This document shows positions 2,644-52,981 of a stretch of DNA of 64,000 bases, piece by piece. The translations under genes and the position numbers were made by a program. The stretch spans positions 36,202 to 100,201 of the forward strand of contig JBEKBJ010000003.1 of NCBI GenBank assembly GCA_050015455.1, read 5' to 3'. Source of the stretch: Candidatus Binatia bacterium. GTDB lineage: Bacteria > Desulfobacterota > Binatia > HRBIN30. Numbering within the stretch: the stretch's first letter is position 1; each line of letters starts with the position of its first letter. The notes under the pieces are model-generated. The model was not told where the DNA came from. It saw only the letters and a list, made by a program, of their open reading frames with translations, and did no database searches.

Positions 2644-3203
2644 ATGGAAACTCCGAAGCGCCAGCCGACACGTGCCGTGCGGGTGGGGCAAGTACAGATC
2701 GGTGCCGGCGCGCTGGTCGCGGTGCAGAGTATGTGCACCACCAAGACACGCGACTTCTGCCCCGCCTGCGCCTGGAGTTGGACCGCCTCATCGCCGGCCG
2801 CTGCGTAGGTGCAAGCGAACAGGCGACTTGACGGACGGCCAGCTATTGCGGCATGACCTTTGACGCCATGGCTTTCGCATCCAGAGCGTTTCCCAAGATG
2901 ATGCTCGGATTCGTCGTGCGCCGGTGCACCGTCGACATGGGCCATCAACCTTCGCCCGAAGAGTTTGCGGTGTGGGCCAACGACTACAAGCATGGCACCG
3001 GGATCTATCGCCTGTTCGGCCGCCCGATAACGGTGGACGAAGCGCGCCTGATCCTGCGGCACAGGTCGCGGATCGTGACCGCCCGCAGTGCCGCCCCGCA
3101 CGAACGTATACTCCCCGAGGTGGGCGTCGCGAGCGGCAACGGAACCGCCGTCGTGGTCTCGTTCTCCGAGGCCATGGCGCGCTTGAAAGCGCGGGCTAAG
3201 TGA
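2644..3203 (+). pseudogene. ispG: Decayed ispG (HMBPP synthase) remnant: recognisable N-terminus, internal loss/frameshift, degenerate C-terminus
   Basis: METPKRQPTRAVRVGQVQIGAGALVAVQSMCTTKTRD matches the canonical IspG N-terminus ([28 protein letters not shown]). Translation stops after about 54 aa. The downstream 116-aa ORF (2853-3203) aligns weakly to the IspG C-terminus (VGVASGNG vs GVTGGN; EAMARLKARA vs QLEARIRAKA). The three [4Fe-4S] Cys ligands are absent and the locus spans 560 bp where about 1.1 kb is expected. Confidence 0.5.
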
Positions 3204-3289
3204 AGCTGTCAGGATTCAGCAATCAGCCTGTGACGGCGTGGTTGACGTTCTCGCTTGCCGGCTGATGGCCGCGCGCTGATCGCTCTGTC

Positions 3290-5614: not shown

Positions 5615-5623
5615 CGCAGGGAC

Positions 5624-6808
5624 TCAGCTCCCGCGCGGCAGCCCCAGCACTTGCATGGCGATGATCCCGCGCATGATCTCCGAGGTCCCGGAGGCGATGC
5701 TGGCCGCGGGCGCCTGCAAGAACGTGCGCTGCAGCCACTGCTCCGGATTGAAGTGCTCGCTGCCGGGATCGGGGGTGTCGTAGAGCAGGCCCGATGGTCC
5801 CAGGATCGACATGCCGATACGCGGCATCGCCTGGGTGAGCTCGGTCCAGTGCAGTTTAATGATCGAGGCCTCCGGGCCGGGCATACCCCAGCGCAGCAAC
5901 TTGTCGAGCGTACGCTGGCAGGTGTGCCGAAAGGTTTCGACACCCAGGTAGATGTCAGCCAGCGCCTGGCGCATCAGGGGGTCGCGGCTCGCGCCGCGCT
6001 CGCGCGCCAGCCGGAGGAGCTGATCGCGTCCGCGGGCCAAGAGGATCTGCATCTCGACCACGTACAGGATGCCGCGCTCGTTCTGCAATGCGGCGGTGGC
6101 AATCTGCCAACCGTTGTGCAGCTCGCCTAGGAGGTTTTCACGCGGCACCCGGACATCCTCGAAAAAGACCTCGCTGAATTCCGCCTGGCCGCCGATCTGC
6201 CGTAGCGGTCTGACCGTGATTCCCGGGCTCTTCATATCGACGAGCAGGCAGGAGATACCATTGCGCCGTTTCGACTCGGGGTCGGTACGGCACAGGACCA
6301 TGCACCAGTTGGCGTGCTGCGCCAGGGTGGTCCAAACCTTTTGGCCATCCATGACGAAGGAGTCGCCCTCCAGAATCGCCTTGGTGCGCAGGGACGCCAG
6401 ATCCGACCCGGCGCTGGGCTCGGAAAAGCCGAAGCACCAGAGATCTTCCGCCGTCAGGATGCGGCGCAAGAAGCGTTGCTTTTGCGCCTCGGTACCGTAA
6501 GCAATCAGGGACGGGCCCGCGATCCCGATCCCGAGGCTGCCAGCGACCTCGGGCGCCTGGGCGTGCGCCATCTCCTCCGTGTACGCGATCTGCTCCGGAA
6601 TCGAAGCTTCCCGTCCGCCGTATTCCACCGGCCAGGTGATTCCCACCCAGCGTGCCTCGGCGAGCTTCGCCTGCCAGGCACGCAGGCGCGGAATACGTTC
6701 CGCTTCGGGCAGCTTGGCGGCGTGTTCGGCCTGCAGCTCACCCGGAAGATTGGCCGCCAGCCAGCTGCGCAACTCCTTACGGAATACCTCGAGATCTTGT
6801 GTCCCCAT
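5624..6808 (-). CDS. Acyl-CoA dehydrogenase family protein
   Basis: ACAD N/M/C domain pattern over about 394 aa; convergent with mutS2. Confidence 0.75.
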   Translation of the reverse strand: MGTQDLEVFRKELRSWLAANLPGELQAEHAAKLPEAERIPRLRAWQAKLAEARWVGITWPVEYGGREASIPEQIAYTEEMAHAQAPEVAGSLGIGIAGPSLIAYGTEAQKQRFLRRILTAEDLWCFGFSEPSAGSDLASLRTKAILEGDSFVMDGQKVWTTLAQHANWCMVLCRTDPESKRRNGISCLLVDMKSPGITVRPLRQIGGQAEFSEVFFEDVRVPRENLLGELHNGWQIATAALQNERGILYVVEMQILLARGRDQLLRLARERGASRDPLMRQALADIYLGVETFRHTCQRTLDKLLRWGMPGPEASIIKLHWTELTQAMPRIGMSILGPSGLLYDTPDPGSEHFNPEQWLQRTFLQAPAASIASGTSEIMRGIIAMQVLGLPRGS

Positions 6809-6900
6809 GGCGGAGTTTTGTAAACGTCTGCTGCCCCGACGTCAATGTGCTGGCGTCACGGCGCAATTCGGTGTAATGAACCTCACCGCTGAGGTGTGAT

Positions 6901-12400: not shown

Positions 12401-12545
12401 GTGCAGCGATTTGAACCGCTAATAAAATGGTCAGTGCCGCGATCACGTGGCGCCGCGCGCGACTCTTCACGGCAAGCGTTCGATCGCTGTCCGGGCTGCG
12501 GTGCGATCGTGGCTGCGTGTATTCCACGTGCGTGGACCTGTTCAT
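9471..12545 (-). CDS. Large secreted modular protein: signal peptide, two Cys-rich modules, TP-rich linkers, two globular domains of unknown function, C-terminal dockerin-like repeat
   Basis: The signal-like segment is [27 protein letters not shown]. Two Cys-rich modules are present ([20 protein letters not shown]...; [21 protein letters not shown]...). The C-terminus [21 protein letters not shown] is a dockerin-type repeat. The start is uncertain: ATG at 12545 or GTG at 12470. The longer ORF would run into the hisS start. Confidence 0.65.
10877..11010 (-). repeat. About seven tandem copies of an 18-bp unit (ggggtgytggtgaaygtt on the + strand) encoding PTFTST repeats
   Basis: Direct reading shows consecutive 18-mers differing at one or two positions. 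They translate on the - strand as [19 protein letters not shown]. Confidence 0.8.
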
Positions 12546-12604
12546 TGACTTGAAGTACACCCTCTGATACCTAACTCGCCACCCACAGCGCAAGCGCTCC
12601 CACA

Positions 12605-13906
12605 ATGAGAATCGCGTCCGTCAAAGGATTTCACGACATCCTGCCCGACGAGAGCGTCCGTTGGCAATGGATCGAGCAGCAGGCAAGAGAGCTGTTCGCG
12701 CGCTACGCTTTCGCCGAGATCTGCATTCCGATTGTCGAGCGCACCGAGCTGTTCAGCCGCTCGATCGGCGAAACCACGGACATTGTCGAGAAGGAGATGT
12801 ACACCTTCACCGACCGCGACGGTTCCTCGCTGACCTTGCGTCCCGAAGGGACCGCCTCGATCGTGCGCGCCTACGTCGAGCATGCGCTGCACCAGCGCGA
12901 GGCGGTCTCGAAACTCTTCTACTTCGGGCCGATGTTCCGCCGCGAACGGCCACAGAAAGGGCGTCTGCGCCAGTTTTCTCAGGTCGGCGTGGAGGTGATC
13001 GGCCGCGATGATGCCGCCATCGACGCGGAGGTGTTGCTCCTGCTGCACGATCTGCTCGCTGGTGTGCAAGTCCGTGGAGCGCAGATCGAGCTGAACTCGC
13101 TCGGCTGCGGCGCCTGCCGCCCCGGATATCGCGCTGCGCTATTGGCCTATGGTGAAGCGCACCGCGACGTGCTGTGCGAGAACTGCAGCCGGCGTCTCGA
13201 GCGCAACCCGCTGCGGTTGTTGGACTGCAAGGACCCGGCGTGTCGAGAATCGACGGCCGACGCCCCGATGATGATGGATTATCTGTGTGAGGCGTGCCGC
13301 ACGCATTTCGACGCCGTCCGCGCGATGCTGGCGCGTGAGAGCGTGGAACCGCGGCTCAATCCACGCATGGTGCGCGGCCTCGATTATTACTGTCGCACCG
13401 CCTTTGAAGTAGTGGCCGAGGGCTTGGGCGCGCAAAACGCCGTCGGTGGTGGCGGCCGCTACGATGGCTTGGTGAAGGCTCTCGGTGGTCCGGACGCGGC
13501 CGGAATCGGCTTCGCGCTCGGAATCGAGCGGCTGGTGCTGGCGCTCGCCGAGCACGAGCGGATCCGTCCTCAGGTCCCTGAGGTCTTCGTCGCGCCGATC
13601 GGCTCCGTGGCCGAAATGGAAGCCATGCACCTGGCCCACCGCTGGCGTCGCGACGCGATGCGTGTTGAAATGGCCAGTGGGGGCAGGAGTTTGAAGAGTC
13701 AGATGCGCTTGGCTGATAGAGTTGGGAGCCCTTACGTACTGATCCTCGGTGAGGAAGAGTTGGCGGCGCGGTCGTTGACGGTGCGCGACATGGTGGCCAA
13801 GCGCGACTTCCCGAGAGCGATCGAAATGTCTTCGTCTGCGAACGCATTGCGGCAAGCGCTGCTGCAATGCGCGCAGCCGGTAGGGAGCAACGCACGTGAA
13901 CGCTGA
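12605..13906 (+). CDS. hisS: Histidine--tRNA ligase
   Basis: The N-terminus [10 protein letters not shown]...IVEKEMYTF aligns with HisRS motif 1 and the HisA region, and the class II core pattern is present. Confidence 0.92.
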
Positions 13907-19812: not shown

Positions 19813-22800
19813 TCACGGCCCCAGCTCACCGCTCGTCAACAACGAGGTAACGTTTCCGTTTGGCGAGGTGATTGTCACCGAAATGACCGCCGGCTCGTCA
19901 CTGGTCAGTCCGGTAGGAGCCGTGAGCACAAAGGTGAATTGCGTCAGGCCGCCCACCAACTGGTTGAATGACTCACCGTCCGGCACGGTGATGCCGCCGC
20001 CCGTCACGGTGCCATTGGACGCGCTGATGGCGATTGTCGATCCGCCGACCAGGGGGTTGACCAGATCGTCATGCACATTGATCGTAAATGACATTGATGC
20101 CCCGGTCGAGAGGTAGAACGAGTAACACGATCCTGGCGACCCTGGCAACGAGCACCCTTCCAGTACCGGCGCTTGCGTGGGGCCGGAGAAGGTCACGGGG
20201 ATGGCGCGCCACACCAGGATGTTGTTATCCCAGTACCCATGCGTGCCTTGCCCGATTCCAGTCGTGCCGACGCTGTCCCAGACCCCGTTCCCATTGGTGT
20301 CGACGAACAGTTCGAAGTCGTCCGTGACGTTGAACTGGTTGTCGCAAAGGGAGCTTGGCGGTGAGATCGGGCAGGTGGAGTCAGCTGGCGGGTAGGGCCG
20401 GAAGTCGATGAAGGGCTCGGGTATATCGTCCGTCAGGATGACGTCAGCTTGCGGGCCGGGTGCGGGCGGACACGGCGGAGCGTTGAAGCCGGGAGCGCAG
20501 TCGAAAATGCCATCGCCGTTGTTGTCCTTGAACGACTCTTCGCCATGAGTGAAGGCCATGACCGTCACGATGCCGGTCGGTGGGACGACTCCCTCGGTCA
20601 CCAACGTCGCGGTCGCGACGCCGGAGGCATCCGTGGTAGTTGGGCTGACCACGCTGGCGGCGTTGGTGACGAAGGACACTGCCGTTCCCGGCGGGACAGC
20701 GTTGCCGAACCGGTCGTTGACGTACGCCGAGATTTGATCCGACAGGCCGAACGTCACGCGGCCCTGAATGTTCAGCTGCTTCGCCGCGATACTGAAGTGA
20801 TTGTATGCTGGCGGCGCACCGAGGATGCTGACCGCCGTTGATTGCGCCGAAACTCCCGGGTTCGTCACCACGGTAGCGACTACCCGCACGGTCGTAGCCT
20901 GGATGCCACTGGTCACCGTGGTGCTGACCAGCCCGTTCTGATCACTCACCGCCGACAGCGGATTGAGGCTTTCCGATCCGCTGCCGGACAGCGTGAATTG
21001 GACAGCGACGCCAGACATGGGGTTGTTTGTGGTGCTGTTTACCTTGAAGACCAGCGTCGACTGTTCCGGCAGCCCGGAGCCACGCACACCAATGGACGGA
21101 GGCGTGGCGCCCAGGAATTGGATCGAGCCGGCCGGGGGTGTTGGGCTCAGCGTTGGAGTGCTCGGGGGCGTAAAGGTGGCCACGCCTGAGGGCCAAGGAC
21201 TCGGCGTCGCCGTGATGGTGGGCGTATTCGTTGGCGGTGGCGTCGCTGTCATTGTTGGCGTCGCCGTCGGCCGGGTGTCAGGCAACGTGATCGTCTTCTC
21301 CGCCTCGATCACCGCCCCCGTCGCGGTCGTGACGCGAGCACGGATAGTGATCGTGGTTCCCTGCATATCGTACACGTACTTGATGCACGCCAGAGCATCG
21401 CCCGGCTGTGGTGTGACGCTGAAGCTGATGGTGCAAGGCTGCGCCTCATTGGTGAATCCGGGGCTGGTGATCGACACACCCGAGACCGGATTCACCAGGC
21501 TGAACTCCACCGGCACGCCATCGGCGATGGTTGCACCGTTGGCGTCGGTCACCAGCGCGCTCACCACGCTGGAGAACGTCCCGTCACCATTATCGACGCG
21601 CTGGTTCTCGGCCAGATCCACATCGATGAAGGCCGCAGGCGGTCCCTGCTGCGTGACTCCAGCCGTCGCGATGCGGCCGAGCGCATCCGTAGCGGTGATC
21701 AAGAACGTCCCGACTTCGTTGCCGGCAGTGAAGGTGAACGAACCACCGGACGCCGGCACCACGGTCGTATTCAGACACCCGACTCCGCTGGCGGAGATCG
21801 TGAACGGCGCCGCCCCGCCGCTCACCACGAACGTTTGCGGGATGCCGTTACAATTGGGCGGTGGTTCAACTCCGGCCCACAGCGTCGCGCCGCTCGGTGC
21901 GATACTGGGAGGCTGTACGGTCGGTGTCGCAGTAGGCAGAACCGTGGGCGTCGACGTGATCGTCGGCGTGGCGGTGGGACGTGTATCGATGAGAATAATC
22001 TGCCGTTCGTCCGAAACGAAGCCGCCGGTCGCGGTTTGCACGGTTGCCTGCACGGTCACGGTCGTGCCCTGCAGTGCTGCAACATACTTAAGGCACGACA
22101 GCGCGTCACCGGGCTGCAGCACGATGCTGAAGTCGATCGTACATGGCTGCGCCTGGCCGGTGTATCCTGGGCTGGTCAGTGACACCCCAGAGACCGGATC
22201 GACCAAGGTGAATGTGACCGGCACTCCATCTCCAACGACGACGCCGGAGACATCGGTCACCAGGGCGCTCACGATCGTCGTGAAGGTCCCGTCCTGGTTG
22301 TTGGTCACGTGACTGAGGATCTGATCCAAGCGCACGTAAGCAGCGCCGGGGGTTGGCGGCACGGTCGCCGTCGCCGGCACGGTCGCCGATGCCGGCGGTG
22401 TGTTCGTAGGCAGCGGTGTGAGCGTGAACGTCGGGGTCGGAGGCCCTTGGACCGTGACCCCGGCCGATGCGGTCTTCCCTGCAGCGTCGGTCACGGTGAT
22501 GGTGAAGTTACCGAGCACGTTGCCCGCCGTGAAGATGAACGAGCCACCCGAAGCGGGAACGCTGCTGACGCTGACACAGCCGCCACCAGCAAACACGCTG
22601 AATGGTGGACTGCCGCCCGTAACCACGAAGGTCTGGGTTGCACCGTTGCAGCCGTTCGGCGGTGCGCCGTCGCCTGCAGCCAGGGTCGATTGGGTTGGCG
22701 CGATCATCGGTGGCTGCGGCGTCGGTGTGGGCGACGGAGCCAGTGTCGGAGTCGCCGTGGGAGTGAAAGTGGCGGTGATCGTCGGCGTCGGCGTCGGCAT

Positions 22801-25800
22801 CGCGAGGAAGGTGATGACATCGGATACCGTGACCGAGCCGTTGCCGCCGCCCGGCAGCGAATCCAAATCTGACGTGACCTTGATCGTGACGACGTCGACC
22901 TCGGACGTCGTGGACTGCGGCGCATTGTCGAGCACAGTGAAGTGGAACCGATTGATCCCGTCGATCAGCTGATCGAAGGTTATGGCGTCCGGTAAGGTGA
23001 AGTTGCTCAGGCCGATGACGCGGGCGCGACTGCCATCAACGGAGATGGCCACCGTCGACCCGCCGACGATCGGGTTTCCCACTCCCGTATTGACCAGCGG
23101 ATCGGGATTGTCGCTGACGATCAACGTGTAGTTGAGGGATCCGCCGGCCTCTATGGGACCAGTACTGCCCGGAATCAGCCAGACGCTGGTCGGTCCGGAG
23201 AAGGTAGTGCAAACGTTGTTGAACACCACCACCTGGTCGCCGCACGCCGGTGTTCCCGAGCCTTGATCGCTGTCCCACTTACCGTTGCCGTTGAGGTCGA
23301 TGAAGTCCTCACCGGGGTCGTAGGTGCCGTTGCAGTTGGCATCGTAGAACGGTTCCGGTATCGCCAGCAGCTGATCGCCGCTGTCGCACACGCCGTTACC
23401 GTTCACGTCGATAAAGGGCCGTTCTCCGCTACTGGTCGCCAGCGTGACGACGATCCCGTTGGCCGGGACGGGGGCTTGCGTCACGAGCGTTGCCGTCGCC
23501 TGGCCGAGATCGCTGGTGGTGGTGGGGTTGCCGATCGCGCCACCCTTGGTCGTGAAGTCGACGGTTGTCCCCGGCGGCACCGGATTTCCAAAGCGGTCGG
23601 CGACAAACGCGGTGATCGTATCGGCAATCCCATAGTAGACGCCGCCCGAAACGTTGGCTAACTTATGCACCACGCTGAAGTTCGGCTGCGACGGTGGCCC
23701 GCCGAGAATACTGACGGCCGCCGAGCGCACGATGAGCGGCGGCGACACGCTGTCGACTTCCGCTGTGACCTGGACGCTCATCGCCCGCTCACCGCTGGTC
23801 AACGTCACTTGCACATTGCCAGCACTGTCCGTCACCGCCTGCAGCGGCGAGATCTGCTCGTCTGCAATCCGCGCGATGGAAAAATTCACCGTGACTGCCG
23901 AGAGGGGAGCGCCCACGGCGTCCGTGACCTGGAAGGTGAGCACCGATTGCTCCGGCAAACCCGAACCGCGCACGCCGATGGTGGCAGGCTGCGCGCCGAG
24001 AAATTGCATCGCTCCAGGCTGAGCCACCGGCGTCGGTGTACCCGGTGTCGGTGTGGTGGTGGCTGTGACGTTGACGATGGGGACGGTAACGTCGGTGATC
24101 GGCAGGCCACCACCCCCCACCTGTACGGTCGCCGTGCCAGACTCCGTCCCGGCTGGAATAACCAAAGTGGCGCTCGCCTGGCCGTTACTGTCGGTCAGGG
24201 CCGACTGATCGATGGTGCCGACGGACGTAGTGAAGTGGATGCGCACGTTCTCAACCGGATCCAAGTTGGCATCGAACACCGAGACGCGGACGAGGGCAGG
24301 GGCGTCATCGGTGTTGTTGACGAGAACCGTGGCGGGTACCACCTTCACTTCCAAATCGCTGACCGCACCTGGCAGCGTGACTGCCTGGCCGCCTTGGTTA
24401 TCGACGCTGCCCACGGTGGCGTGTACCTGTATTTCCGTCGCCTGCAGCGCGATCGGGTATTTCACGCAGGTGATGGCATCGCCGAGCTCGAGTGAGATCG
24501 GCAGGCCGGTTTGGGTAACGTACTGACTGGTGTCACACGGCGGCTCCGCGTCGGTCACCGCACTGCCTGACAGGACCACGTTCTGCGCCGGATCGTCGGA
24601 GCCGTTTGTCAGCATGGCGAAGAACACGCCGGTCCCGTCTTCAACCGGATTACCCTGTGCGTCCGTGACGCTTGCGGTCAGCACAGTCAGCAGCGTGCCG
24701 TCATTGTTGTTGCTGAATTTCTGACTGATGCTGATCCCGATGTGGCTGGCTGGCCCCGAGGAGACGGTCACCACCGTCTGCTGCTCGCTGAGCGGTGCAG
24801 GCACACCGTATACTGTGGTATCCGCGCAAGCTGCAATCGTTATCGGGCCGGGTTGCGGGCCGGCGTGCACCTGGATGACGGCAACTCCTGCAACGTCGGA
24901 AACCGAGACCGGGTCGTCCGCTGCGCACAGCGTCGTAGGGATAGGCGTCGGCGAGCTGGTCGGCACTGGTGTCGTCACAGGCAGAATGGCAGCGCCGGCA
25001 GCACTCGCTGCGGCGACAACGTGGTAGTGGACGTTGACGCCACTCAGCGGATTGCCGTTGTTGTCGAATACGCGGCCGATGACGGTGGCCAGCTCCGTCC
25101 CGCCCGTACCCGCCACTTGGATATGGGTCGGGCTCGCACCAAGCGTGATAGCAGCCGGTTCCCCTGGTGGCACGCCAGGATTGACCGTACCCGAGCCGGC
25201 CACGACCGTGATCGTCGCCGAACCGGATACACTTCCGGCTACCGCGCTGACGGTGAAGGGTCCTTCCGGCATACCGACGGGCACCTGCAACACCGAGGTC
25301 GCAACGCCGCTCTGCGTCTGGTCCGTCAGCGGATTCACGTAGCCTGCCGGCGTAACGAACAACACGTCGATACCGTTGATTGGAGCGTTGTCGGCGTCGA
25401 GCACCGCCGCGGTGAGATTAATCGCGCCGCCCGAGAGATTGCCTACCGTGGATGGGTCGGCTTGCAAGACCACGGTCGCGACCGGTTTCGTACTGACACC
25501 GGCGACCACGTTGACCGAAACGTTGCCGGTCTTGCCGCACGCCTGAGCTGAGACGGCCAGGGAACCGACGCTCGAGTTCACCGGAATGTTCAGCGTGGTC
25601 ATCGCCGTGCCGTTGTTGTCGGTCGTCTGCACCAATTGGCTGAACGACGCCGCGTTTCCCGGTTGCACCTCGAAAAGGATGGCGACTCCCGCCACTCGGA
25701 TGTTGTTCGAATCGAAGGCGATCGCAGTAATCTTAGCGCTGCCACCCGTCTGGCTGCTCACGTTCGGCGTGTCGGTCTGGACAATGATCGTCTGCACGAC

Positions 25801-26490
25801 TGCACACGGCTCGGGGGTCGGTGTCACCGTTGGGGTCCAAGTCGGCGTCGGGGTCGGGGTCGGCGTTGGCGTCGGGGTCGGGGTTGGTATCGGGGTCCAA
25901 GTCGGCGTCGGCGTCAGGCTCGGGGTTGGTGTCGGCGTCAGGGTCGGGGTTAGCGTCGGCGTCACTGAGGGCGTCGGTGTCACTGAGGGCGTCGGCGTCG
26001 GCGTGCTCGTCGCGGTTGGTGCGGGGCCCACAGAGACCCTCAGCGTCACTGACAGCCCATTGAGCGGTGACGTCGGGTCTATAACGCCGACTGTCAAGGG
26101 GTAAAGTCCGGCCGCTGGGGCCAGAGCGGAGCCGCTAAATGAGCCGTCACCACCGGTAATACCGACGCTGCCAGGAGACAACACGGTCAAGTTTGTTGTG
26201 ATCGCCACCTCTTGACCGGCAACGGGATGACCCTGGGAGTCTTTCAGGAACACGCTGAATGCAGTGGTGTCACCCGCCGCGAGTTCGACGTTCTGAATGC
26301 ATAACGTTATCGCCCCGGCATTAGAGCTCTCGGTCCATTGATTGGGACACACTGGCAGGGGGGTCGGCGTCAATTGCCCGGTCTGCGAGGAGCTGGTGCT
26401 GCTGCCGCCGCCACCACCCCCGCAGCTACTCACCAGCAGCACCAGGCCCGCTGCCAGACCCAATCTAGCCATCCCCATCCGGCGTCCCAT
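19813..26490 (-). CDS. Giant (2225 aa) surface lipoprotein built from repeated bacterial Ig-like (Big/invasin-like) modules and TP-rich linkers
   Basis: Lipobox LLVSSC followed by a Gly/Ser linker. Modules of the type [18 protein letters not shown] / [15 protein letters not shown] resemble Big_1 (invasin/intimin Ig-like) domains. Large internal duplications are present (e.g. [29 protein letters not shown]... and [29 protein letters not shown]...). Confidence 0.75.
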
Positions 26491-44297: not shown

Positions 44298-44526
44298 CGA
44301 ACTTCGGTCGCCGCGGTACCGCGACGAAATTGCCCCGGGCCGCGACTATTGGGGGGGAGCACCGTTCCCCCCCAAGAAAACCAGGCGAAACGCCGAGCGT
44401 TCCCTTGAGGGCGGGAGCAGTGCTCTCGCCCTCAACGCAAGCGCCCGCTGGTACGACAGCCCCCCCCTAGCTACTAGCTATCCGGCTGGTTGTGACAGGC
44501 GCCACATTACAGCTACAGTGGGGCAC

Positions 44527-46398
44527 ATGAACCCATATCGTAGCCGTATCACCACCCAGGGCCGCACCATGGCCGGGGCACGAGCCTTGTGGCGCGCCAC
44601 CGGCATGAAGGATGCCGATTTCAACAAGCCCATCATCGCCATCGCCAACAGCTTCACCCAGTTCGTTCCCGGACACGTGCACCTGCACGACGTCGGCCAA
44701 CGCGTGAAGCAGGTGATAGATGCTGCCGGCGGTTACGGCGCCGAGTTCAACACCATCGCCATCGACGACGGCATCGCCATGGGACACGGCGGCATGCTCT
44801 ACTCGCTGCCCAGCCGCGATTTGATCGCCGACAGCGTCGAGTACATGGCCGAGGCCCACGTCGCCGACGCGCTCCTGTGCATCTCGAACTGCGACAAGAT
44901 AACACCGGGCATGCTCATGGCCGCCATGCGGCTCAACATCCCGACGATCTTCGTCTCCGGCGGGCCGATGGAAGCGGGCACCTCGGTTGGAACGCACGAC
45001 GCGCAGGGGCAACCGCTGAAGATCGATCTGATCGATGCCATGGTTGCCGCCGGTGACAGCGCTGTCGCCGACGAACGGCTGCTCGAGATGGAGCGCTCTG
45101 CCTGTCCCACTTGCGGCTCGTGTTCCGGTCTCTTCACCGCCAACAGCATGAATTGCCTCAACGAAGCGCTGGGCTTGGCCTTGCCCGGTAACGGCACACT
45201 GCTGGCGACACACAAGATGCGCTGGTCGCTGTTCGAGGAGGCCGCGCGCCAGATCGTGGCGCTGGCTCGCCGCTACTACGTCGATGGCGACAGCAGCGTC
45301 CTGCCCCGCAGCATCGCCACTTCCGAAGCCTTCGAGAACGCGATGACGCTGGACATCGCCATGGGGGGCTCGACCAATACCGTTTTGCACCTGCTCGCCA
45401 TCGCCCACGAGGCCGGCGTGCCTTTCACGATGCAGGACATCGATCGGCTGTCACGGCGCGTCCCCAACATTTGCAAGGTGGCGCCGTCTTCGAGCTACCA
45501 CGTCGAGGACGTGAGCCACGCTGGCGGCATCTTCACCATTCTCGGCGCGCTCGACCGCGCCGGACTCGTGCATCGCGAGGTGCGCACCGTGCACGCGGCC
45601 ACGCTCGGCGAGGGCATCGACGCCAACGACATTCGCCGATCTACCGCCACCAAAGCGGCGCAGCAGCGGGCGCTGGCGGCGCCGGGCGGGGTGCGTACGA
45701 CCGAGGCGTTCTCGCAGGACAAGTACTACGCCGCGGCCGACGCCGATACGGTCAACGGCTGCATCCGTGAGGTCGAGCATGCGTACAGCGCCGACGGCGG
45801 CCTTGCCGTGCTCTACGGCAACCTGGCCGAGGACGGCTGCATCGTGAAGACGGCCGGCGTTGATGAATCGATCTGGCACTTCGAGGGTCCGGCACGCATC
45901 TTCCACTCGCAGGAGGCGGCGTGCGAGGCGATCCTCAAGGACCGCATCAAGCCTGGCGACGTCGTCGTGATCCGCTACGAGGGGCCGAAGGGCGGACCAG
46001 GCATGCAGGAGATGCTGTACCCGACCTCGTACATCAAAGCGAAGAACCTCGGGAAGGTGTGCGCTCTGATCACTGACGGTCGCTTCAGCGGCGGCACCTC
46101 GGGGCTCAGCCTCGGTCACGTCTCGCCCGAAGCGGCTGAAGGCGGCACCATCGGCCTGGTCGAGGAAGGTGATCGCATTCGCATCGACATCCCCAACCGG
46201 CGCGTCGACGTGCTCATTGACGCGCCGATGCTCAAGGCGCGCCGCCTGGAGATGCTGGCGCGCGGCGCCAACGCCTGGAAGCCAGTCGGCCGCCACCGCG
46301 AGATTTCACGCGCGCTGCAGGCGTACGCGCTCCTGACCACCAGCGCCGCGCGCGGCGCCGTGCGTGACGTCGAACAGGTGAGCGGCGCTCGCAGGTGA
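44527..46398 (+). CDS. ilvD: Dihydroxy-acid dehydratase
   Basis: [12 protein letters not shown] and SGGPMEAG motifs, and the IlvD/EDD family C-terminus. Confidence 0.92.
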
Positions 46399-46471
46399 CG
46401 CGTTGCGTGCGCGTCCCATCGTGAGAGAATAATCCGAGTCGAGGATGATACGAACGTGTTCGATCGGTGTG

Positions 46472-47272
46472 TCAAGGCTGCTGTAGACGCGCAGCCAAGG
46501 TGTCGGCCATCAGCCGGTGCAGCCGCCCGTTAGACGCAAGGGTTTGCTGTCCGAAAAGATCGAAGGGCCCGCCCCGAAAATCGCTGATGCTGCCGCCCGC
46601 CTCCTCGACGAGCAGCGCACCTGCCGCCGTGTCCCATGGCTTGAGTTTCCATTCCCAAAACCCGTCGAGACGGCCGCACGCGACGTACGACAGATCGAGC
46701 GCCGCCGAGCCACTGCGGCGCACGCCCTGCGCGCGAACCATGAAGTCGGTGAGGAAGCGGAGATAAAAGTCGAGGTGCTCGCGACGGTCGTACGGAAAGC
46801 CGGTGCCGATGAGCGCTTGCTCGATGTCGTCGGTCGCCGAGACCCGAATGGGCGCGTCGTTCAGCGTCGCGCCGAGGCCGCGGCGGGCACAGAAGGTCTC
46901 TCTGCGCACCGGATCGTGCACGATCCCTAGCAACAGCTCGCGGCCACGCGCCAGCGCCAGCGAGACGGCAAACTGCGGATACCCGTGCGCGAAGTTGATG
47001 GTGCCGTCTAGTGGATCGAGGTACCAAACGTAGCGCTCGTCCGGCGGACGCTGAAGCGCGCAGCCGGCCGAGGCCTCCTCGGCCACGATGAGATGATCCG
47101 GAAAGGCGCGTCGCAGTTCCGCTGTCAGCAGCGCCTCGATCTCACGATCGGTCTCGGTGACGATGTCGACAACACCCTTATGCTCGACGATCTTCGCCTC
47201 ACCCCATGCCGCCCGCAGGCGCTCGCCGGCTTCGGCCACCAAAGTGCGCGCAAGATGCTCGAACCCGTCCAT
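46472..47272 (-). CDS. Inositol monophosphatase family protein (SuhB-like)
   Basis: WYLDPLDGTINFAHGYP and the WDTAAG motifs. Confidence 0.85.
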   Translation of the reverse strand: MDGFEHLARTLVAEAGERLRAAWGEAKIVEHKGVVDIVTETDREIEALLTAELRRAFPDHLIVAEEASAGCALQRPPDERYVWYLDPLDGTINFAHGYPQFAVSLALARGRELLLGIVHDPVRRETFCARRGLGATLNDAPIRVSATDDIEQALIGTGFPYDRREHLDFYLRFLTDFMVRAQGVRRSGSAALDLSYVACGRLDGFWEWKLKPWDTAAGALLVEEAGGSISDFRGGPFDLFGQQTLASNGRLHRLMADTLAARLQQP

Positions 47273-47422
47273 ATCATTGACCGTCCCACATCGGATCGAG
47301 CCGGGCAAGCCGCGGCCGACTGGCCTCGTTGCGCCTGATGCAGTTGTTTTGTTGCGTAACTCCGGTTACAAGAAACCGTCCGAATCACCCCCTACCTTGA
47401 ACGAGATAGCAGGAGCACGAAG

Positions 47423-49978
47423 ATGATCGAGAAATACCAGAAGCACGTAGCCGAGCGGGCCGCGCAGGGCATTCCGCCGCTTCCCCTCAATCCAGAGCAG
47501 ACCGAGCAACTGTGCGGGTTGCTCACATCACCCCCGGCGGGGCAGGAGAAGCTGCTGTTGGATCTGTTCGAGAACCGTGTGCCGCCGGGAGTTGATCCGG
47601 CCGCCAAAGTCAAAGCCGCCTTCCTCGGGCAGGTCCTGAAAGGGACGGCTCGGAGCCCTCTGGTTTCCAAGGCCCGTGCCGTCGAGATCCTCGGCACCAT
47701 GCTCGGTGGTTACAACGTCGAGCATCTGATCGCGGCCTTGCAGGACGCCGAGGTCGCAGATGCTGCCGTCAAGGCGCTCTCCCGCACCACCCTGGTCTAC
47801 GACGCGTTCAACCAGGTCGAGAAGCTTGCCAAGGCCAACGGGGCGGCAAAGAAGGTTCTCGAATCATGGGCAGCGGCCGAGTGGTTCACCTCGCGGCCCG
47901 AGCTGCCCGTCGAAATCAAGGTGAAGGTTTTCAGGGTGGACGGCGAGACCAACACCGACGATTTCTCGCCCGCCAGTGACGCGTCGACCCGTCCCGACAT
48001 TCCGCTGCACGCGCTGGCGATGGGCAAGACGCGCTTTCCCGGCGGCATCGACACCATGGCCGAGTGGCGTAAGGCCGGCGCTCGCGTGGCCTTCCTCGGC
48101 GACGTGGTCGGCACCGGCTCGTCGCGCAAATCAGCCTGCAACAGCGTCCTCTGGCACATCGGCGAAGACATCCCGGCGGTGCCCAACAAGCGCCGCGGCG
48201 GCGTGATCATCGGCGGCGCCATCGCCCCCATCTTCTTCAACACCGCTGAGGACTCCGGCGGTCTTCCCCTCGTCGCCGACGTGACCGGCATCGGCTCGGG
48301 TGACGAGGTCACGATCGACACGCGAGAGGGCACGATCACCTCGGGGTCAGGCCAAGTCGTTTCGCGATTCAAGATCAGCCCGAACACGCTGCCCGACGAG
48401 TTCCGCGCCGGCGGCCGCATCCCGCTGATTATCGGCCGCGCGCTCACCGCCAGAGCGCGCGCGGCGCTCGGGATGGGCGAGACCGACGTCTTCCGCAAGA
48501 CCGAGAACCCCAAACCCAAGCCTGGCCAGGGTTACACGCAGGCGCAGAAGATCGTGGGCAAGGCAGCCGGTCTGCCGGGCGTGCTGCCGGGCAGCGCGTG
48601 CGAGCCCAAGATGACCACGGTGCTATCGCAGGACACGACGGGGCCGATGACGGCCGACGAGCTTAAGGAACTCGCCTGCCTCAGGTTCCAGAGCCCGCTC
48701 TTCTTGCAGTCGTTCTGCCACACCGCCGCCTACCCCAAACCGGCAGACGTGAAGATGCACCAGACGTTGCCGCCCTTCATCGCCGAGCGCAAAGGCGTCG
48801 CGCTACGGCCGGGCGATGGCGTCTGCCACAGTTGGATCAACCGGCTGCTGGTGCCCGATACCGTAGGCACCGGTGGCGACTCGCACACCCGCTTCCCGAC
48901 CGGCATCTCGTTCCCGGCGGGCTCCGGGCTGGTCGCCTTTGCCGGCGCGCTCGGCTTCATGCCGCTCGACATGCCCGAGTCGGTTCTGGTGCGCTTCTCG
49001 GGCGAGTTTCGCTCCGGCATTACCTTGCGCGACGCGGTGAACGCCATCCCGCTGTGGGCGATAAAAAAGGGCTTATTGACGGTACCCAAGAAGAACAAAA
49101 AGAATATCTTCAACGGTCGCATCCTCGAGATCGAGGGCCTGCCGAACCTCACGGTGGAGCAGGGCTTCGAGCTCACCGATGCGGCCGCCGAGCGCTCGGC
49201 GGCTGCCGGCTGCATCCAACTCTCCGAGGAATCGGTCAAGACCTTCCTGCGTTCCAGCGTCGCCCTCATCCGGCGCATGATCGAGGACGGCTATCAGGAC
49301 GCCGAGACGCTGGAGAAGCGCGCCAAAGCCATCGAGGCATGGCTGGCGAATCCGCAGCTGCTCAAGGCGGATGCTAACGCGGAGTACGCCGCGGTGATCG
49401 ACATCGATCTCAGCGAGATCACCGAGCCGATCGTCGCCTGCCCCAACGATCCCGACGATGTCAAGGTACTATCCGAGGTGGCCGGGACGCCGATCCAAGA
49501 CGTCTTCCTTGGTTCGTGCATGACCAACATCGGTCACTTCCGCGCCGCAGCGAAGATCTGGGAGGGCCACAAGCACAACCCGGCAACACGAACATATATT
49601 TGCCCGCCGACGCGGATGGACCAGGCCAAGCTCAAGAGCGAGGCCTACTTTGCACTGTTCAACGCGATCGGGGCACGCATCGAGACGCCCGGGTGCTCCC
49701 TCTGCATGGGCAACCAGCTGCGCGTTCCGGCCGGGGTGACCGTATTCTCCACCTCGACGCGCAACTTCGACAACCGCATGGGTGACGGCGCGAAGGTTTT
49801 CCTCGGCTCTGCCGAGCTGGGCGCGGTCACAGCGATACTGGGCAAGCTCCCGACGCCGGCGCAGTACCTCGCCGAGTTTGAGAGCCGTGTCGCCCCGCAC
49901 CGGGACGAGGTTTACAAGTACCTGCAGTTCGACGAACTCGGTCGCTTCGACGCCATCTACAACCGGCGCGATCTGTAA
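47423..49978 (+). CDS. acnB: Aconitate hydratase B (bifunctional aconitase 2 / 2-methylisocitrate dehydratase)
   Basis: The AcnB-specific N-terminal HEAT-like domain followed by a swivel domain and the aconitase catalytic domains, about 851 aa in total. Confidence 0.9.
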   Translation: MIEKYQKHVAERAAQGIPPLPLNPEQTEQLCGLLTSPPAGQEKLLLDLFENRVPPGVDPAAKVKAAFLGQVLKGTARSPLVSKARAVEILGTMLGGYNVEHLIAALQDAEVADAAVKALSRTTLVYDAFNQVEKLAKANGAAKKVLESWAAAEWFTSRPELPVEIKVKVFRVDGETNTDDFSPASDASTRPDIPLHALAMGKTRFPGGIDTMAEWRKAGARVAFLGDVVGTGSSRKSACNSVLWHIGEDIPAVPNKRRGGVIIGGAIAPIFFNTAEDSGGLPLVADVTGIGSGDEVTIDTREGTITSGSGQVVSRFKISPNTLPDEFRAGGRIPLIIGRALTARARAALGMGETDVFRKTENPKPKPGQGYTQAQKIVGKAAGLPGVLPGSACEPKMTTVLSQDTTGPMTADELKELACLRFQSPLFLQSFCHTAAYPKPADVKMHQTLPPFIAERKGVALRPGDGVCHSWINRLLVPDTVGTGGDSHTRFPTGISFPAGSGLVAFAGALGFMPLDMPESVLVRFSGEFRSGITLRDAVNAIPLWAIKKGLLTVPKKNKKNIFNGRILEIEGLPNLTVEQGFELTDAAAERSAAAGCIQLSEESVKTFLRSSVALIRRMIEDGYQDAETLEKRAKAIEAWLANPQLLKADANAEYAAVIDIDLSEITEPIVACPNDPDDVKVLSEVAGTPIQDVFLGSCMTNIGHFRAAAKIWEGHKHNPATRTYICPPTRMDQAKLKSEAYFALFNAIGARIETPGCSLCMGNQLRVPAGVTVFSTSTRNFDNRMGDGAKVFLGSAELGAVTAILGKLPTPAQYLAEFESRVAPHRDEVYKYLQFDELGRFDAIYNRRDL

Positions 49979-50026
49979 CCTGACAGTCGGGAGTGAGCAA
50001 CCGTCGGGCGGCCGGGAACTGAGCGT

Positions 50027-50125
50027 TCACCCCCCCACGGGTCTTGCGCGCATCCATATCAGCGCGTTGTTCACGGCCGTGAGGATCTCGTCGACGGTGA
50101 CATGGCCGTCGTGGCTCCAGTACCT
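50027..50125 (-). pseudogene. Short remnant of a paralogous dockerin-repeat C-terminus (...HDGHVTVDEILTAVNNAL...)
   Basis: The DNA is about 80% identical to 50760-50830 over 65-70 bp. Its - strand translation matches a dockerin second repeat, but no upstream ORF exists. Confidence 0.35.
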
Positions 50126-50177
50126 GGGCCATGCCGCTGCGTGGCTCCGATCGGAGGGTGAGCGTGGCAAGTTCCAC

Positions 50178-50411
50178 TTACACCGTGTCGAGGACGCGGT
50201 GGTATTCGTCGGGAGTCACGCCGATTTCTCGTAGGATTTCGCGAATCAGCGGCCGAGCCAACTCCCGGCCCGGATGATGCGGGATGGAGGTGCCGCGCCC
50301 GTCCGGGTGGCGATAAAAGGCGTGGCTTCCCTTCTGACGACTCTTCTGAAACCCAAGCGCGAACAGCACGCGCTCCAATGTGGCCGCATCAACAATGCGC
50401 AGGCGGCTCAT
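50178..50411 (-). CDS. hicA: HicA-family mRNA interferase toxin
   Basis: GSHAFYRHPDGRGTSIPHHPGRELARPLIREILREIG resembles the HicA/YcfA fold. The gene overlaps the hicB stop by 4 nt (ATGA). Confidence 0.75.
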   Translation of the reverse strand: MSRLRIVDAATLERVLFALGFQKSRQKGSHAFYRHPDGRGTSIPHHPGRELARPLIREILREIGVTPDEYHRVLDTV

Positions 50412-50638
50412 CGCTCCAGTTCAAGCTCGTGGACGCCATAAAAGCTGGGGAACTCGGTGAGGCCACGGCTCTCGGCCTCTTCGAGGCACAGTTCGACCAC
50501 CTCGCGAACGTTCCGCTCAAGTTCGTCAAGCGTTGCCGCCTGCGTGTGGGCTCCGGGAAGTGTCGGGACGGTGGCGACGAACATGCCGCTCTCGTCATCA
50601 CGTTCAATGATGACGGGGAACCGATACCGTTTGGCCAT
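50408..50638 (-). CDS. hicB: HicB-family antitoxin (N-terminal RNase H-like fold only, no obvious DNA-binding domain)
   Basis: FPVIIERDDESGMFVATVPTLPGAHTQAATLDELERNVREVVELCLE is a UPF0150/HicB N-domain pattern. Start set at MAKRYRF. Confidence 0.7.
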   Translation of the reverse strand: MAKRYRFPVIIERDDESGMFVATVPTLPGAHTQAATLDELERNVREVVELCLEEAESRGLTEFPSFYGVHELELER

Positions 50639-50752
50639 GCGCACCTCCGACTCGCCACCTATAGCACATCCGATCGCACGTTGCGCTCTGCGTGCCTGAT
50701 AAGCATTTAGCCGAACCGCGCGTCCCTGACACCCGGCACCTGACACCGCGTG

Positions 50753-51371
50753 CTACCCGCATCCCTCCAGCGCGTGGTTCACGGCGGTGTGGATCTCATC
50801 CACGGTGATCTGGCCGTCGTGGTTTGCGTCCCCTGCGAAGCAGCCATCGATATTCGCGTTCCCCAGGGCAACATCCACCATTGTCAGCAGCTCGCTTACG
50901 GTTACAGTCCCATCCCCGTTACAGTCGCCCGCGCATGGGGCTACTGGCAGGTCCAACGCAAAGGTTGCCTCGTTGTTGCTACGATCAACGTCCGCCACGA
51001 CGCCCGCGTCATCTGCCGTCACTGTAATATAGTTGCTCCGGGCTCGTCAGCGTTCCGGGCGCGAGGCTGAGCGCAAGTTGCGCCAGAGCGCCGGCATCGA
51101 GGGCGGGGACGATCGTCGTCGTGATCGGTGAACCGGATGTGCCGGCGTAGCGAATGGCCAGCGTGGACGAGGGCGCTGCCGGCGCGCAGTTGTTGACGAC
51201 CTGCACGATCACACTTGCCGACCCGTCCGCTTGCACGGAGCGCGTGAGAATGGTCACCGCGAGGTCGGTCCCGCCGACGTTCACGGACAAGCGGTTGTTG
51301 GCCGGATTGAAGTCGCTGATCGTACCGTCCGGATCGATGACCGCAAAGAGCGTGTTGGGTGCCGGCACCAC
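50753..51371 (-). pseudogene. 5'-truncated, frameshifted gene fragment: beta-rich domain followed by a complete dockerin-like double repeat
   Basis: Two overlapping frames are present. 51371-51009 encodes ...VIDPDGTISDFNPANNRLSVNVGG... 51022-50753 encodes GDCNGDGTVTVSELLTMVDVAL...GDANHDGQITVDEIHTAVNHAL. Only about 40 nt separate it from the upstream gene's stop. Confidence 0.55.
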
Positions 51372-51413
51372 CCAGGCCGCCGGAGAGCTTCCACGCGGCG
51401 CGGTCCTCTGCGG

Positions 51414-51914
51414 TCAGCGTTTCTTCCGCTGGTTGACGAGACGCGCCAGGAAGGCACGGTCGAGCTTGTCCTTGTCGCGGTACGTGTCCTTCATCCGCAG
51501 GAGCAGCTCGGGGTTGGCGAACGGGATGGGGACGCCGTCGACCTCGACGAGGTCTACGTGCCGGCTGGCCTCTTCGTAAGCGATTCCGCACGCCGCCTTC
51601 ATGAGGTCGACAACGATCTCATCGGCCACGCGCACCACGGCGTAGCGGCCAAGATCGTCGGGCGCCACGTCACGGACGGCCTGATCCTGGAGCTTCAGCA
51701 GTGCCCGCCGCACCCGCTCTTGATTCGCCGGGGAGATGTCGATCAGCAGGTCGATGTCGCCCGTGGCCCGCGGGAAGCCGGCCTGAATGACGGCCATCCC
51801 GCCAATGACCACGTAGGCTGCACCCGCCGCGTTCAGGTCTCGGCAGAGAGCCACAAGGTCCTCTAGGAGCGGGGGGCGTGCTTCCGGGGCCTCGTCAGCA
51901 TCGTCAGGGACCAT
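51414..51914 (-). CDS. Small nucleotidyltransferase-fold protein (Lnu/ANT(2'')-like minimal NTase)
   Basis: AYVVIGGMAVIQAGFPRATGDIDLLID resembles the hG[GS]...D.D NTase motif of lincosamide/aminoglycoside nucleotidyltransferases. The Arg-rich N-terminal extension of the longer ORF is discounted. Confidence 0.5.
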   Translation of the reverse strand: MVPDDADEAPEARPPLLEDLVALCRDLNAAGAAYVVIGGMAVIQAGFPRATGDIDLLIDISPANQERVRRALLKLQDQAVRDVAPDDLGRYAVVRVADEIVVDLMKAACGIAYEEASRHVDLVEVDGVPIPFANPELLLRMKDTYRDKDKLDRAFLARLVNQRKKR

Positions 51915-52105
51915 GCGTCGCTCTCTTCGAAACTCGCGAAGCGATACACTCCCTTGGGGATGAACGGCTTGTCGCCGCGGAGCCGCAAAGCGATCTCCAG
52001 CAGACCCGCGGCGGCGGCGAGCCCGCCTCGCCACCTTCGCCGTCCGACAACCTTCATGGGCAGCTCGTCGCTTGGAAGCGCGGTTCGTCGCCAGTCGACC
52101 ATCAT
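51863..52105 (-). CDS. Hypothetical small protein upstream of and overlapping the NTase gene; possible cognate partner
   Basis: 80-aa ORF ending ...FIPKGVYRFASFEESDAWSL.... It overlaps the NTase start by about 50 nt in another frame. Confidence 0.3.
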   Translation of the reverse strand: MMVDWRRTALPSDELPMKVVGRRRWRGGLAAAAGLLEIALRLRGDKPFIPKGVYRFASFEESDAWSLTMLTRPRKHAPRS

Positions 52106-52600
52106 GTCGAATGCATAGTATCACACGCCCGCCAAGTCGAGCTAGAAGCCCGGATCATTCATGCATCGATCGACTGCGAGCGCGAAATGGACGGCCGGGC
52201 GGCCGAGGCGGAACGTGAGGAGCATCTCCGCTGTCCACCGGCCGATGCCGATGTGGTCGAGGATGAGTTCGATGGGCCGTCAGGCCGCGACTCGGCGCGC
52301 GCGCAGCTCGGCCACCAGTTCCAAGTCGGGTGCCGTCGCGGTCGCCTCACTTCTCCAGATCAACCGGTCTTGCTGAGTTTGACGCTCTTCTCTGCGATGC
52401 CGGCGAGCGCCGACTGGCAGAGGAGCTTGCCAACAAGAAGAGACAGGGAGACTCCGGCAAGAGATTCGGGCTCTGGATGCACGTCCCGGTGTCGTCTTCC
52501 CCACTTTGCAAGAGAGATGATGAAACGAGCGCGCCGGCAGGATCATCAGCCCGTGCCCGGATCTTGCTTGGAAGCCTGTTGCTTGCTGTCCGCGACGCTG

Positions 52601-52981
52601 CTAGTCGTCGGCGCCTGGGGCTTGGATCAGATCGGAACGTTTACCTTTGCGCGGGCGCTCGGGTGCGAGTCTCCGTTCGTCGAGCATGTGGCGGACAGCG
52701 AGGATGGGGTGGTGCCGGAGCATACGCGGGCCGGCGTAACGCATCACCGTCTGCACCTGCTGGCGCAGCGACGGCTTGTAGCAGTGGATGGGGCAGTTGG
52801 CGCAGGTGGGCTTGTCATCACCGTAGGGACATTTCTCCAGCCGCTGCCGCGCGTAGGCCTGAAGCTCAGCACATTGCACACACAAGCTGCGCTTCATGCC
52901 GTGCTGGTCGCGGCAGAACAGCCGGATCATCGCCTCGATGGTCCGGCGCTCTCGGTTGGTTCTCGTCGCCGCGGCGTTCAT
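52601..52981 (-). CDS. YgbA-like 'nitrous oxide-stimulated promoter' family protein
   Basis: MIRLFCRDQHG...LCVQCAELQAYARQRLEKCPYGDDKPTCANCPIHCYKPSLRQQVQTVMRYAGPRML matches the conserved Cys/His pattern of YgbA-family proteins. Confidence 0.65.
   Translation of the reverse strand: MNAAATRTNRERRTIEAMIRLFCRDQHGMKRSLCVQCAELQAYARQRLEKCPYGDDKPTCANCPIHCYKPSLRQQVQTVMRYAGPRMLRHHPILAVRHMLDERRLAPERPRKGKRSDLIQAPGADD

Follow-up and report, generated by a model that had tools for sequence, protein, structure and literature searches.

A 64,000-nt stretch of DNA from a Candidatus Binatia bacterium (contig JBEKBJ010000003.1; hereafter the window) carries a hicBA toxin-antitoxin (TA) gene pair past the 3′ end of acnB, the gene for aconitase B. 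The pair is flanked on each side by a copy of the 3′ portion of a dockerin-like module (termed D), both copies lying on the same strand. We propose that hicBA is a selfish TA cassette in a slot between these two D copies, and that cassettes of this type are exchanged by homologous recombination within D. Our estimate of the probability that this reading is correct is about 0.6. The proposal draws on the anatomy of the locus, on an orthologous slot that holds a different cassette, on a mosaic left repeat, on shuffled arrays of cassettes and on purifying selection acting on hicBA, each of which is evident from comparisons of DNA sequence. Rather than an isolated case of gene decay, the D-TA-D arrangement looks like a slot in which cassettes can be swapped. 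The best description of the window locus is as a single-cassette example of a TA cassette array system that spans the lineage and has dockerin repeats as its boundaries.

The hicBA pair and the edges of its cassette

All features of interest reside on the minus strand, past the 3′ end of the convergent acnB gene (47423-49978, plus strand; stop codon 49976-49978). The antitoxin gene hicB (50408-50638) encodes 76 aa and is followed by the toxin gene hicA (50178-50411), which encodes 77 aa. The two genes are adjacent and co-oriented, and the hicB stop and hicA start codons share ATGA (50408-50411). HicA matches Pfam HicA_toxin (PF07927) with 64.8 bits relative to a cut-off of 27 (E 7.7e-18), and HicB matches HicB_lk_antitox (PF15919) with 34.1 bits relative to a cut-off of 27 (E 3.5e-8). 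These matches bear out an earlier note on the window, which had placed hicBA between two dockerin fragments at nearly the same positions. PADLOC matched neither HicA nor HicB. HicA aligns with the Thermus thermophilus HicA homologue of PDB entry 1whz (E 9e-11), including the histidine of KG(S/G)H. Specifically, KGSHAFYRHPDG of HicA pairs with KGGHRLYTHPDG of 1whz, an alignment in which the conserved catalytic histidine (G-x-H motif) appears to be kept. The solved structure closest to HicB is PDB 2yzt (TTHA1756, 67 aa; E 1e-8), and the HicB structure 6g1c is also matched (E 2e-5).

The HicB match covers profile positions 1-51 of 123, and no C-terminal ribbon-helix-helix (RHH) or helix-turn-helix (HTH) DNA-binding domain is present in the 76-aa protein, which makes self-sufficient autoregulation by HicB doubtful. 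The earlier note was correct in calling this a minimal HicB without an obvious DNA-binding domain, but the short protein is an ordinary and common form (TTHA1756/TTHA1013-like) and no peculiarity. HicB proteins that lack a DNA-binding domain were reportedly recognized as a variant by Makarova et al. in 2006. The window pair resembles the short-HicB subclass of HicAB type II TA systems (T. thermophilus TTHA1756/TTHA1013, 1WHZ) in its HicA_toxin domain with the KGxH histidine, in the N-terminal HicB_lk/UPF0150 domain of its antitoxin, and in consisting of two small overlapping genes in one operon. It differs from E. coli hicAB in that the antitoxin gene comes first, and from typical HicB proteins in the missing RHH/HTH domain. 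Judged by its sequence, hicBA is an intact, routine short-HicB type II TA pair, in which HicA would be expected to act as an RNase that is neutralized by HicB.

More than 1300 relatives of the 77-aa HicA occur across many phyla. The nearest hicBA relative, and the nearest copy that is not identical, is carried by locus L099 (HicA 95% identical), with L100 second (90%). When the window pair is compared with L099, 9 of the 11 substitutions in hicB and 14 of the 18 in hicA fall at codon position 3 (23/29 for the two genes combined), which indicates purifying selection on hicBA. The more distant HicA relatives L101 and L102 (74-78% identity) were also considered, and dockerin flanks are absent from both. 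The 5′ region of the cassette (50639-50722) may serve as a leader or promoter. GGAGG sits 7 nt ahead of the hicB ATG, and a sigma-70 consensus scan of the minus strand found no hicBA promoter.

Identity to L099 changes sharply at the edges of the cassette. The right D is 67% identical and its tail 75% (measured over 50723-50758), whereas the 5′ leader and hicB are each 95.2% identical, hicA 92.3% and the hicA 3′ flank 98.4%, with identity returning to 77% in the left D. The fall from 95% to 75% places the cassette boundary at 50723-50755, an interval that comprises the G-rich tail of the right repeat (GGTGTCAGGTGCCGGGTGTCAGGGAC) and the stop codon at 50753-50755; the spacer between the dockerin-module open reading frame (ORF) and hicB measures 114 nt. 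The hicBA cassette would encompass at least window positions 50078-50722. The hicA 3′ flank (50119-50177) is non-coding and conserved. Measured as 50117-50177, it is the same as in L099 and L100 at 60 of 61 nt, and is 98.4% conserved over three contexts, while coding sequence is conserved less (91-95%; hicA itself is 91-92% identical to L099 and L100 at the same loci). This flank holds a perfect 12-nt palindrome, CTCCGATCGGAG, with no T-run, and a permissive Rfam scan of 49800-52700 gave no match.

Structure of the left repeat

The left flank was used as a blastn query against the whole 64-kb window. Positions 50049-50114 matched 50758-50822 over 66 nt at 84.8% identity with one gap (E 1.9e-13), and the next best match had an E value of 0.09. 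A MAFFT alignment was also viewed, in which mismatches between the two window D copies involve several different base pairs. The similarity of roughly 70 bp that had been noticed earlier is thereby confirmed. It takes in the final ~17 codons of the module and runs past the stop by a few bases. The left D holds the end of module repeat 2 (..AVNNAL) and a decayed ..NGCVQNP-stop tail, in which a 1-nt insertion is present (GAATGG to GATATGG) and the TGA stop is now TGG. The same tail is intact in the sister population described below (..NGCVQNP-stop).

Two parts with different affinities make up this repeat. The terminal part (50031-50077) is a resident dockerin-module repeat that is orthologous to the acnB-proximal D of L130, and the adjoining part (50078-50118; ..WS-HDGHVTVDEILT) is a dockerin-module start borne by the cassette. 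Read along the minus strand, window 50118-50078 agrees with the L100 module linked to hicBA at 39 of 41 positions, and with the resident D of L130 at 32 of 41. The next 19 nt (50077-50059) are identical to L130 at 19/19 positions, compared with 11/19 for L100. This pattern marks the left D as a mosaic with a switch at about 50077/50078. L099 and L100 keep a full two-repeat module at this junction that is about 96 nt longer than the window copy, a length equal to the offset between repeat 1 and repeat 2. The left D of the window is shorter because it passes directly from the start of repeat 1 into the end of repeat 2. Such a join is the footprint expected of an unequal homologous crossover in which a D brought in by a cassette recombined with the resident copy. 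These comparisons support two proposals of the earlier note, that the 66 nt on the left derive from the 3′ end of a dockerin module and that recombination between dockerin-coding repeats was involved.

The acnB slot in a sister population

Three loci of a sister population (L130, L119 and L134) are 93-94% identical to window 44481-50113, a region that includes ilvD, an inositol phosphatase gene, acnB, the intergenic spacer and the left D. The spacer between the acnB stop and the terminal repeat (49979-50030), which terminates in CTGTCAGG flush against the acnB stop, is collinear in these loci, inside a 3.7-kb alignment at 93.6% identity (window 50113 to 46441). Identity to the window stops inside D. 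Beyond D, the three loci carry DUF5615 and DUF433, another orphan D, and then a sigma-54 activator gene that is not in the window. Because L130, L119 and L134 hold the same repeat next to acnB, the left piece of the window is a resident orthologous repeat. As read from these alignments, the acnB slot holds hicBA in this population, whereas the sister population has DUF433/DUF5615 there.

This result contradicts the view that the left piece is the remnant of a local tandem paralogue destroyed by hicBA, since it is orthologous, at ~93% identity, to the acnB-proximal repeat of the three loci. The earlier note had looked to relatives that lack hicBA for the ancestral gene. The sister population has D with DUF433/DUF5615. 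In L019, the closest genome in GTDB (AcnB 91% aa identity), the sequence that follows acnB is unrelated and therefore reveals no ancestral state. A CARDB-dockerin gene located 4 kb away in L019 is no orthologue of the dead gene described in the next section; the module alone matches.

The right repeat and the CARDB-dockerin relic

The right D (50756-50935) comprises an entire dockerin-like module of two repeats (CAGDCNGDG..NHALEGCG), joined in frame to a CARDB fragment. It matches positions 1-59 of the module consensus in tblastn (76% identity, E 4e-29) and contains two Ca-binding loop-helix motifs (D.N.DG..[IV]..E[IL]) at 50926-50876 and 50830-50780. EF-hand_5 scores 31.9 bits against a cut-off of 25.9, and EF-hand_1 is also above its cut-off. 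Pfam Dockerin_1 reaches 20.4 bits against a cut-off of 22.9 (E 6e-4), and 'dockerin-like' is the safer name.

Two ORFs, 51009-51371 (Pfam CARDB, E 1.9e-5) and 50753-51022 (EF-hand/dockerin), overlap in different frames. A full HMMER scan with the CARDB frame against 1.84 billion representatives identified the parent of this gene. Residues 991-1111 of P0136, an intact relative of 1255 aa, are 86% identical to the CARDB fragment at the protein level. On the contig that encodes P0136, L137 6059-6476 is 91.6% identical to window 51364 to 50946 over 419 nt of DNA. Exactly one indel separates them (window CAACTATATTACAG, L137 CAACTCT-TTACAG), and the extra base, at about 51026-51029, is the frame switch. 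The relic (50946-51364) preserves 419 nt from the interior of a ~3.8-kb gene for a CARDB-domain protein of ~1250 aa. It has neither start codon nor signal peptide, and ~3 kb of the 5′ part of the gene is missing. Homology to L137 breaks off abruptly at both sides, with an upstream edge 45 nt from the stop of a nucleotidyltransferase-like gene (51414) and a downstream edge at 50946, just ahead of the dockerin-like module.

The earlier description of a 5′-truncated, frameshifted dockerin gene therefore holds, with one extra base relative to L137. Window 49901-52200 is 100% identical in every assembly recovered, and the frameshift site is spanned in assemblies of 8 samples (JGI, ENA and Logan). 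Because the sequence is identical in 8 samples from three pipelines, the frameshift is not an assembly error. The CARDB-dockerin gene is dead, being both 5′-truncated and interrupted by a real +1 frameshift. The notion that the locus captures TA-associated gene decay is not supported in the form proposed: hicBA caused neither the truncation, which lies 45 nt from the 51414 stop, nor the frameshift, a one-base change located some 270 nt ahead of the stop codon of the dead gene (50753-50755).

The C-terminus of P0136 (L137 3064-6831) is a different dockerin-like module (..LDVDQDGTDDVATDVVYIARTLLGLP.. twice) from that of window 50756-50945, and therefore modules have been swapped between genes that are otherwise 86-92% identical. 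A word-indexed homologue search with the repaired pseudogene matched only the dockerin module on unrelated proteins.

D-bounded TA arrays at other loci

JGI metagenomes were scanned with a 22-mer from the end of the module, which yielded 34 loci. Fifteen of the 34, a share inflated by the choice of probe (see below), hold two to four D copies, and 14 of these 15 include 5′-truncated orphans. The remaining multi-D locus, L117, carries three tandem intact genes that are dockerin-ended (763, 436 and >852 aa; 845-7625), each with a terminal D. Tandem genes of this type may be the raw material of arrays, and some arrays start at the 3′ end of an intact D-ended gene (L133, L118). The inter-repeat segments are mostly 640-1030 nt, such that D copies recur every 0.65-1.0 kb.

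The ORF families found between D copies are MazE_antitoxin, PIN (four kinds), PIN_3, UPF0175, DUF3368, ParD, ParE, DUF433, DUF5615, Uma2, MqsA-like, FitA-like RHH, RHH_1/BrnT, DUF5678 and AF2212-like. Judged by eye from previously annotated ORFs, additional inter-D ORFs resemble PemK, PIN_3 and AF2212-like proteins.

The L099 locus is a 5-kb contig of TA pairs (MazE-PIN, HicBA, BrnTA, AF2212-like, PemK and DUF433/DUF5615), and blastn finds at least five same-strand dockerin 3′ elements between them. In L099 and L127 the order is MazE-PIN, D, HicBA, D, BrnTA, D, then AF2212-like, PemK and DUF433/DUF5615, and again D. The L099 array was recovered independently as L127, L121, L107 and L103 at 98-99.9% identity. 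Arrangements vary among related arrays. The same cassettes as in L099 occur in another order in L121 and L126, and L127 has a UPF0175/DUF3368 cassette ahead of MazE-PIN where L099 has a different repeat type. In L133, MazE-PIN directly precedes the AF2212-like cassette, and HicBA and BrnTA are absent relative to L099. The D at this L133 junction resembles L099 D2 in repeat 1 (5′) and L099 D4 in repeat 2 (3′).

The second-nearest hicBA relative provides a further context. At L100 315-593, the same 61-nt hicA 3′ flank leads into an entire two-repeat module, which continues as a Pro/Thr linker and further protein sequence. Because the full module continues into protein, hicBA has displaced the 5′ end of a gene whose module is N-terminal, taking the place of its start codon and signal peptide. 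L100 is a second case in which the cassette has killed a dockerin gene, and the D junction of the cassette may itself have originated there.

In almost every orphan D copy, the final 15-50 codons of the module are retained with a short tail behind them (..NGCG-stop or ..NGCVQxP-stop), followed by a G-rich stretch (GGTGYCAGG or GTGAGG type), and the 5′ truncation point of D varies from cassette to cassette. The G-rich tail motif occurs on 28 of 33 non-redundant orphan D copies, compared with 4 of 13 that are gene-attached. Of these four, two stand at the head of an array, and a third (L111 1102-1185) is in fact truncated but was misclassified by the length rule. Over the 60 nt after the orphan D stop, the D strand is G 0.44 and C 0.21. 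Examples of G-rich tails (40-60 nt), with GTGAGG or GGTGYCAGG repeats, are seen at L099 1097-1140, L133 2502-2560 and L130 1182-1250. The G-runs of the tails could form G-quadruplexes (G4), and structures of this kind stimulate recombination at Neisseria pilE.

At L106 (59-217 and 1686-3806) an array end adjoins an ORF that reads by eye as leucyl-tRNA synthetase (leuS), and at L126 (2209-2295 onward) an array end adjoins ORFs that read by eye as IMP dehydrogenase and DnaE. Such locations suggest that array slots sit at the 3′ ends of conserved genes, as at acnB. An ORF resembling, by eye, a transposase of the IS110 family is located at L124 3-605 (minus strand), ~1.6 kb from a D-ended gene. 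Relatives of IS110 target repeats such as attC.

Proposed mechanism of cassette exchange

In the mechanism that we favor, each TA cassette would have picked up a piece of D once, leaving every cassette type with its own fixed D junction. Incoming DNA would already carry this piece of D, and in the window the CARDB-dockerin relic would supply the right-hand copy. Cassettes would then be gained, lost, replaced and reordered via recombination within D and the tail. This recombination is most likely of the RecA-type homologous kind, including unequal crossovers between repeat 1 and repeat 2 inside the module. A homologous rather than a site-specific process is favored because the crossovers that can be mapped in these sequences fall at different places in the coding part of D. 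TA addiction may explain why the segments that persist between D copies are nearly all TA pairs, given that the repeats would otherwise delete any DNA they enclose.

Several points weigh against this reading. The 22-mer was derived from array copies, which biases the share of arrays among the loci (15/34) upward. The comparisons rest on metagenome contigs, many of them shorter than 5 kb, and no recombination event was directly observed. The acnB slot is the only one seen with two alternative cargoes. Two features, the array-specific G-rich tail (on 28/33 orphans and scarce on gene-attached D) and the sharp fall of identity at cassette edges, fit a dedicated site-specific system equally well, and a recombinase for such a system could lie more than 10 kb away.

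Alternative explanations

The strongest competitor, which we nevertheless consider unlikely, is a dedicated integron-like site-specific system in which the D 3′ end and G-rich tail (core near GGTGYCAGGGA) form the site and a putative recombinase moves TA cassettes. In its broadest and equally doubtful form, this site would belong to an unrecognized capture system of an uncultured deltaproteobacterial lineage, operated by a putative recombinase or by a G-rich/G4-stimulated mechanism, that would stockpile TA/defence-type cassettes downstream of secreted-protein and housekeeping genes. Co-oriented repeats every 0.65-1.0 kb with TA cargo recall sedentary chromosomal integrons, and the concentration of tail motifs on orphan D and the abrupt identity step at cassette edges (from 95% to 75% and 67%) are compatible with a defined site. 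Moreover, the MazE-PIN cassette begins at the same ..CAGG|GGCCAGGGACCGGAG point behind two tail types, and arrays abut the stop codons of the housekeeping genes acnB and leuS.

However, the gene tables within 10 kb on either side of the window locus contain no integrase and no tyrosine or serine recombinase family (Pfam). The ORFs flanking the L126 and L133 arrays, as read by eye, appear to be housekeeping genes, and no recombinase is evident among them. No attC-like hairpin potential was found when both strands of four D+tail copies (eight strands) were folded as DNA: z-scores ranged from -1.04 to +1.47 relative to shuffles, and none was more stable. Reading of the D+tail sequences revealed no GTTRRRY/RYYYAAC core pair that could serve as R′ and R″ sites, and Rfam was blank. 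The mapped crossovers occur at varied places in the coding D with no single fixed core, the D 5′ truncation point differs among cassettes, and viral contigs gave no match to the D end. An integron proper was rejected, given that the ±10-kb gene tables hold no integrase. A diversity-generating retroelement, suggested by the 3′-end repeat pair, was likewise rejected, as the same tables hold no reverse transcriptase family.

The possibility that hicBA inserted once into, or recombined between, two tandem paralogous dockerin-protein genes, whose decaying remains form the flanks, is largely refuted and seems quite improbable. Such genes do occur in tandem in relatives, with three in a row in L117; the right piece is truly attached to a dead gene, and the left piece has neither frame nor stop codon. 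Yet the left piece is kept at the same site in the sister population with another TA pair, and its first 41 nt arrived with the hicBA cassette. Furthermore, the same D and tail bracket more than 10 other TA families, always as the last 15-50 codons, where random decay would leave random pieces.

That sequencing errors or assembly collapse produced the frameshift and the repeat-flanked structure is highly improbable, for although the assemblies derive from short-read metagenomes and the repeats measure 60-170 nt, the locus is unchanged in every assembly recovered and in three pipelines, the L099 array was obtained independently four further times, and the repeat copies are 10-30% divergent, which is enough for assemblers to tell them apart.

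Relationship to known cassette systems

Sedentary chromosomal integrons, such as the Vibrio cholerae superintegron, stockpile TA cassettes between homogeneous attC repeats (PMC11551772, PMC12614218). The D-bounded arrays share with them a chromosomal location, short cassettes, co-oriented and array-homogeneous repeats of ~60-170 nt, a TA-rich cargo with its own expression signals, and an order that is shuffled between relatives. They differ in that no intI lies beside the array and that D shows neither hairpin nor GTTRRRY core. In addition, D is the 3′ end of a coding module plus a G-rich tail rather than an imperfect palindrome, and its crossovers occur at variable points.

In the minimal mobile elements (MMEs) of Neisseria, transformation and homologous recombination swap alternative cassettes at sites with conserved flanks (PMC3082526, PMC1797815). 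As with these elements, one site holds different cargo in close relatives, the cassettes have no mobility genes of their own, and exchange would proceed via flank homology. The flanks of MMEs are unique housekeeping genes, whereas those described here are short dispersed repeats that encode a domain, which makes tandem arrays and movement to many sites possible.

The pdif modules of Acinetobacter plasmids are small, often consist of TA pairs, are bracketed by short conserved sites and occur in varying combinations. Their pdif sites are plasmid-borne XerC/D sites of 28 bp that alternate in orientation; in contrast, the arrays described here are chromosomal, with no dif-like sequence. What sets the window arrangement apart from integrons, MMEs and pdif modules alike is a bracketing repeat that consists of the 3′ end of sequence coding for a protein domain. 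A full-text literature search found nothing relevant on dockerin together with toxin-antitoxin, and no description of such arrays.

Implications for the movement of TA loci

TA loci are known to be mobile but usually have no recognizable mobile-element boundaries, and their movement in chromosomes is poorly explained outside integrons, plasmids and transposons. Cassettes bracketed by D would provide a concrete, testable route for such movement. Since the bracketing sequence is a conserved, multi-copy coding repeat, any gene with a D module is a potential landing site, and cassettes can stack. Deletion of non-addictive DNA between recombining repeats would account for the near-exclusive TA cargo. 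The spread of selfish cassettes would come at a cost by eroding secreted-protein genes, as with the dead CARDB gene of the window and the beheaded dockerin gene of L100. If a dedicated recombinase does exist, the arrays would represent a new class of cassette-capture system.

Neighbouring features of the window

Upstream of the relic, a nucleotidyltransferase-like gene (51414-51914) and an overlapping ORF of 80 aa (51863-52105) together occupy 51414-52105 on the minus strand. The first gives weak Pfam matches to DUF2204, DUF6036 and AbiEii, and a PADLOC match to AbiEii (E 7e-4). The 80-aa ORF lies upstream of it, and its end reads ..KGVYRFASFEESDAW. The two look like another TA- or defence-type pair, and the insertion side of this pair is the point at which the CARDB gene is truncated at its 5′ end. 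On the other side of hicBA, a 47-codon ORF on the minus strand (50027-50170) has a product that includes HDGHVTVDEILTAVNNAL.

Elsewhere in the window, ORFs 6901-8886 (plus strand) and 9471-12605 (minus strand) have dockerin-like Ca-loop motifs of a different subtype, N-terminal in the former (about 6997-7149) and C-terminal in the latter (9486-9536). The genome therefore has several types of dockerin-like module. The largest ORF of the window encodes 2225 aa (19813-26490, minus strand).

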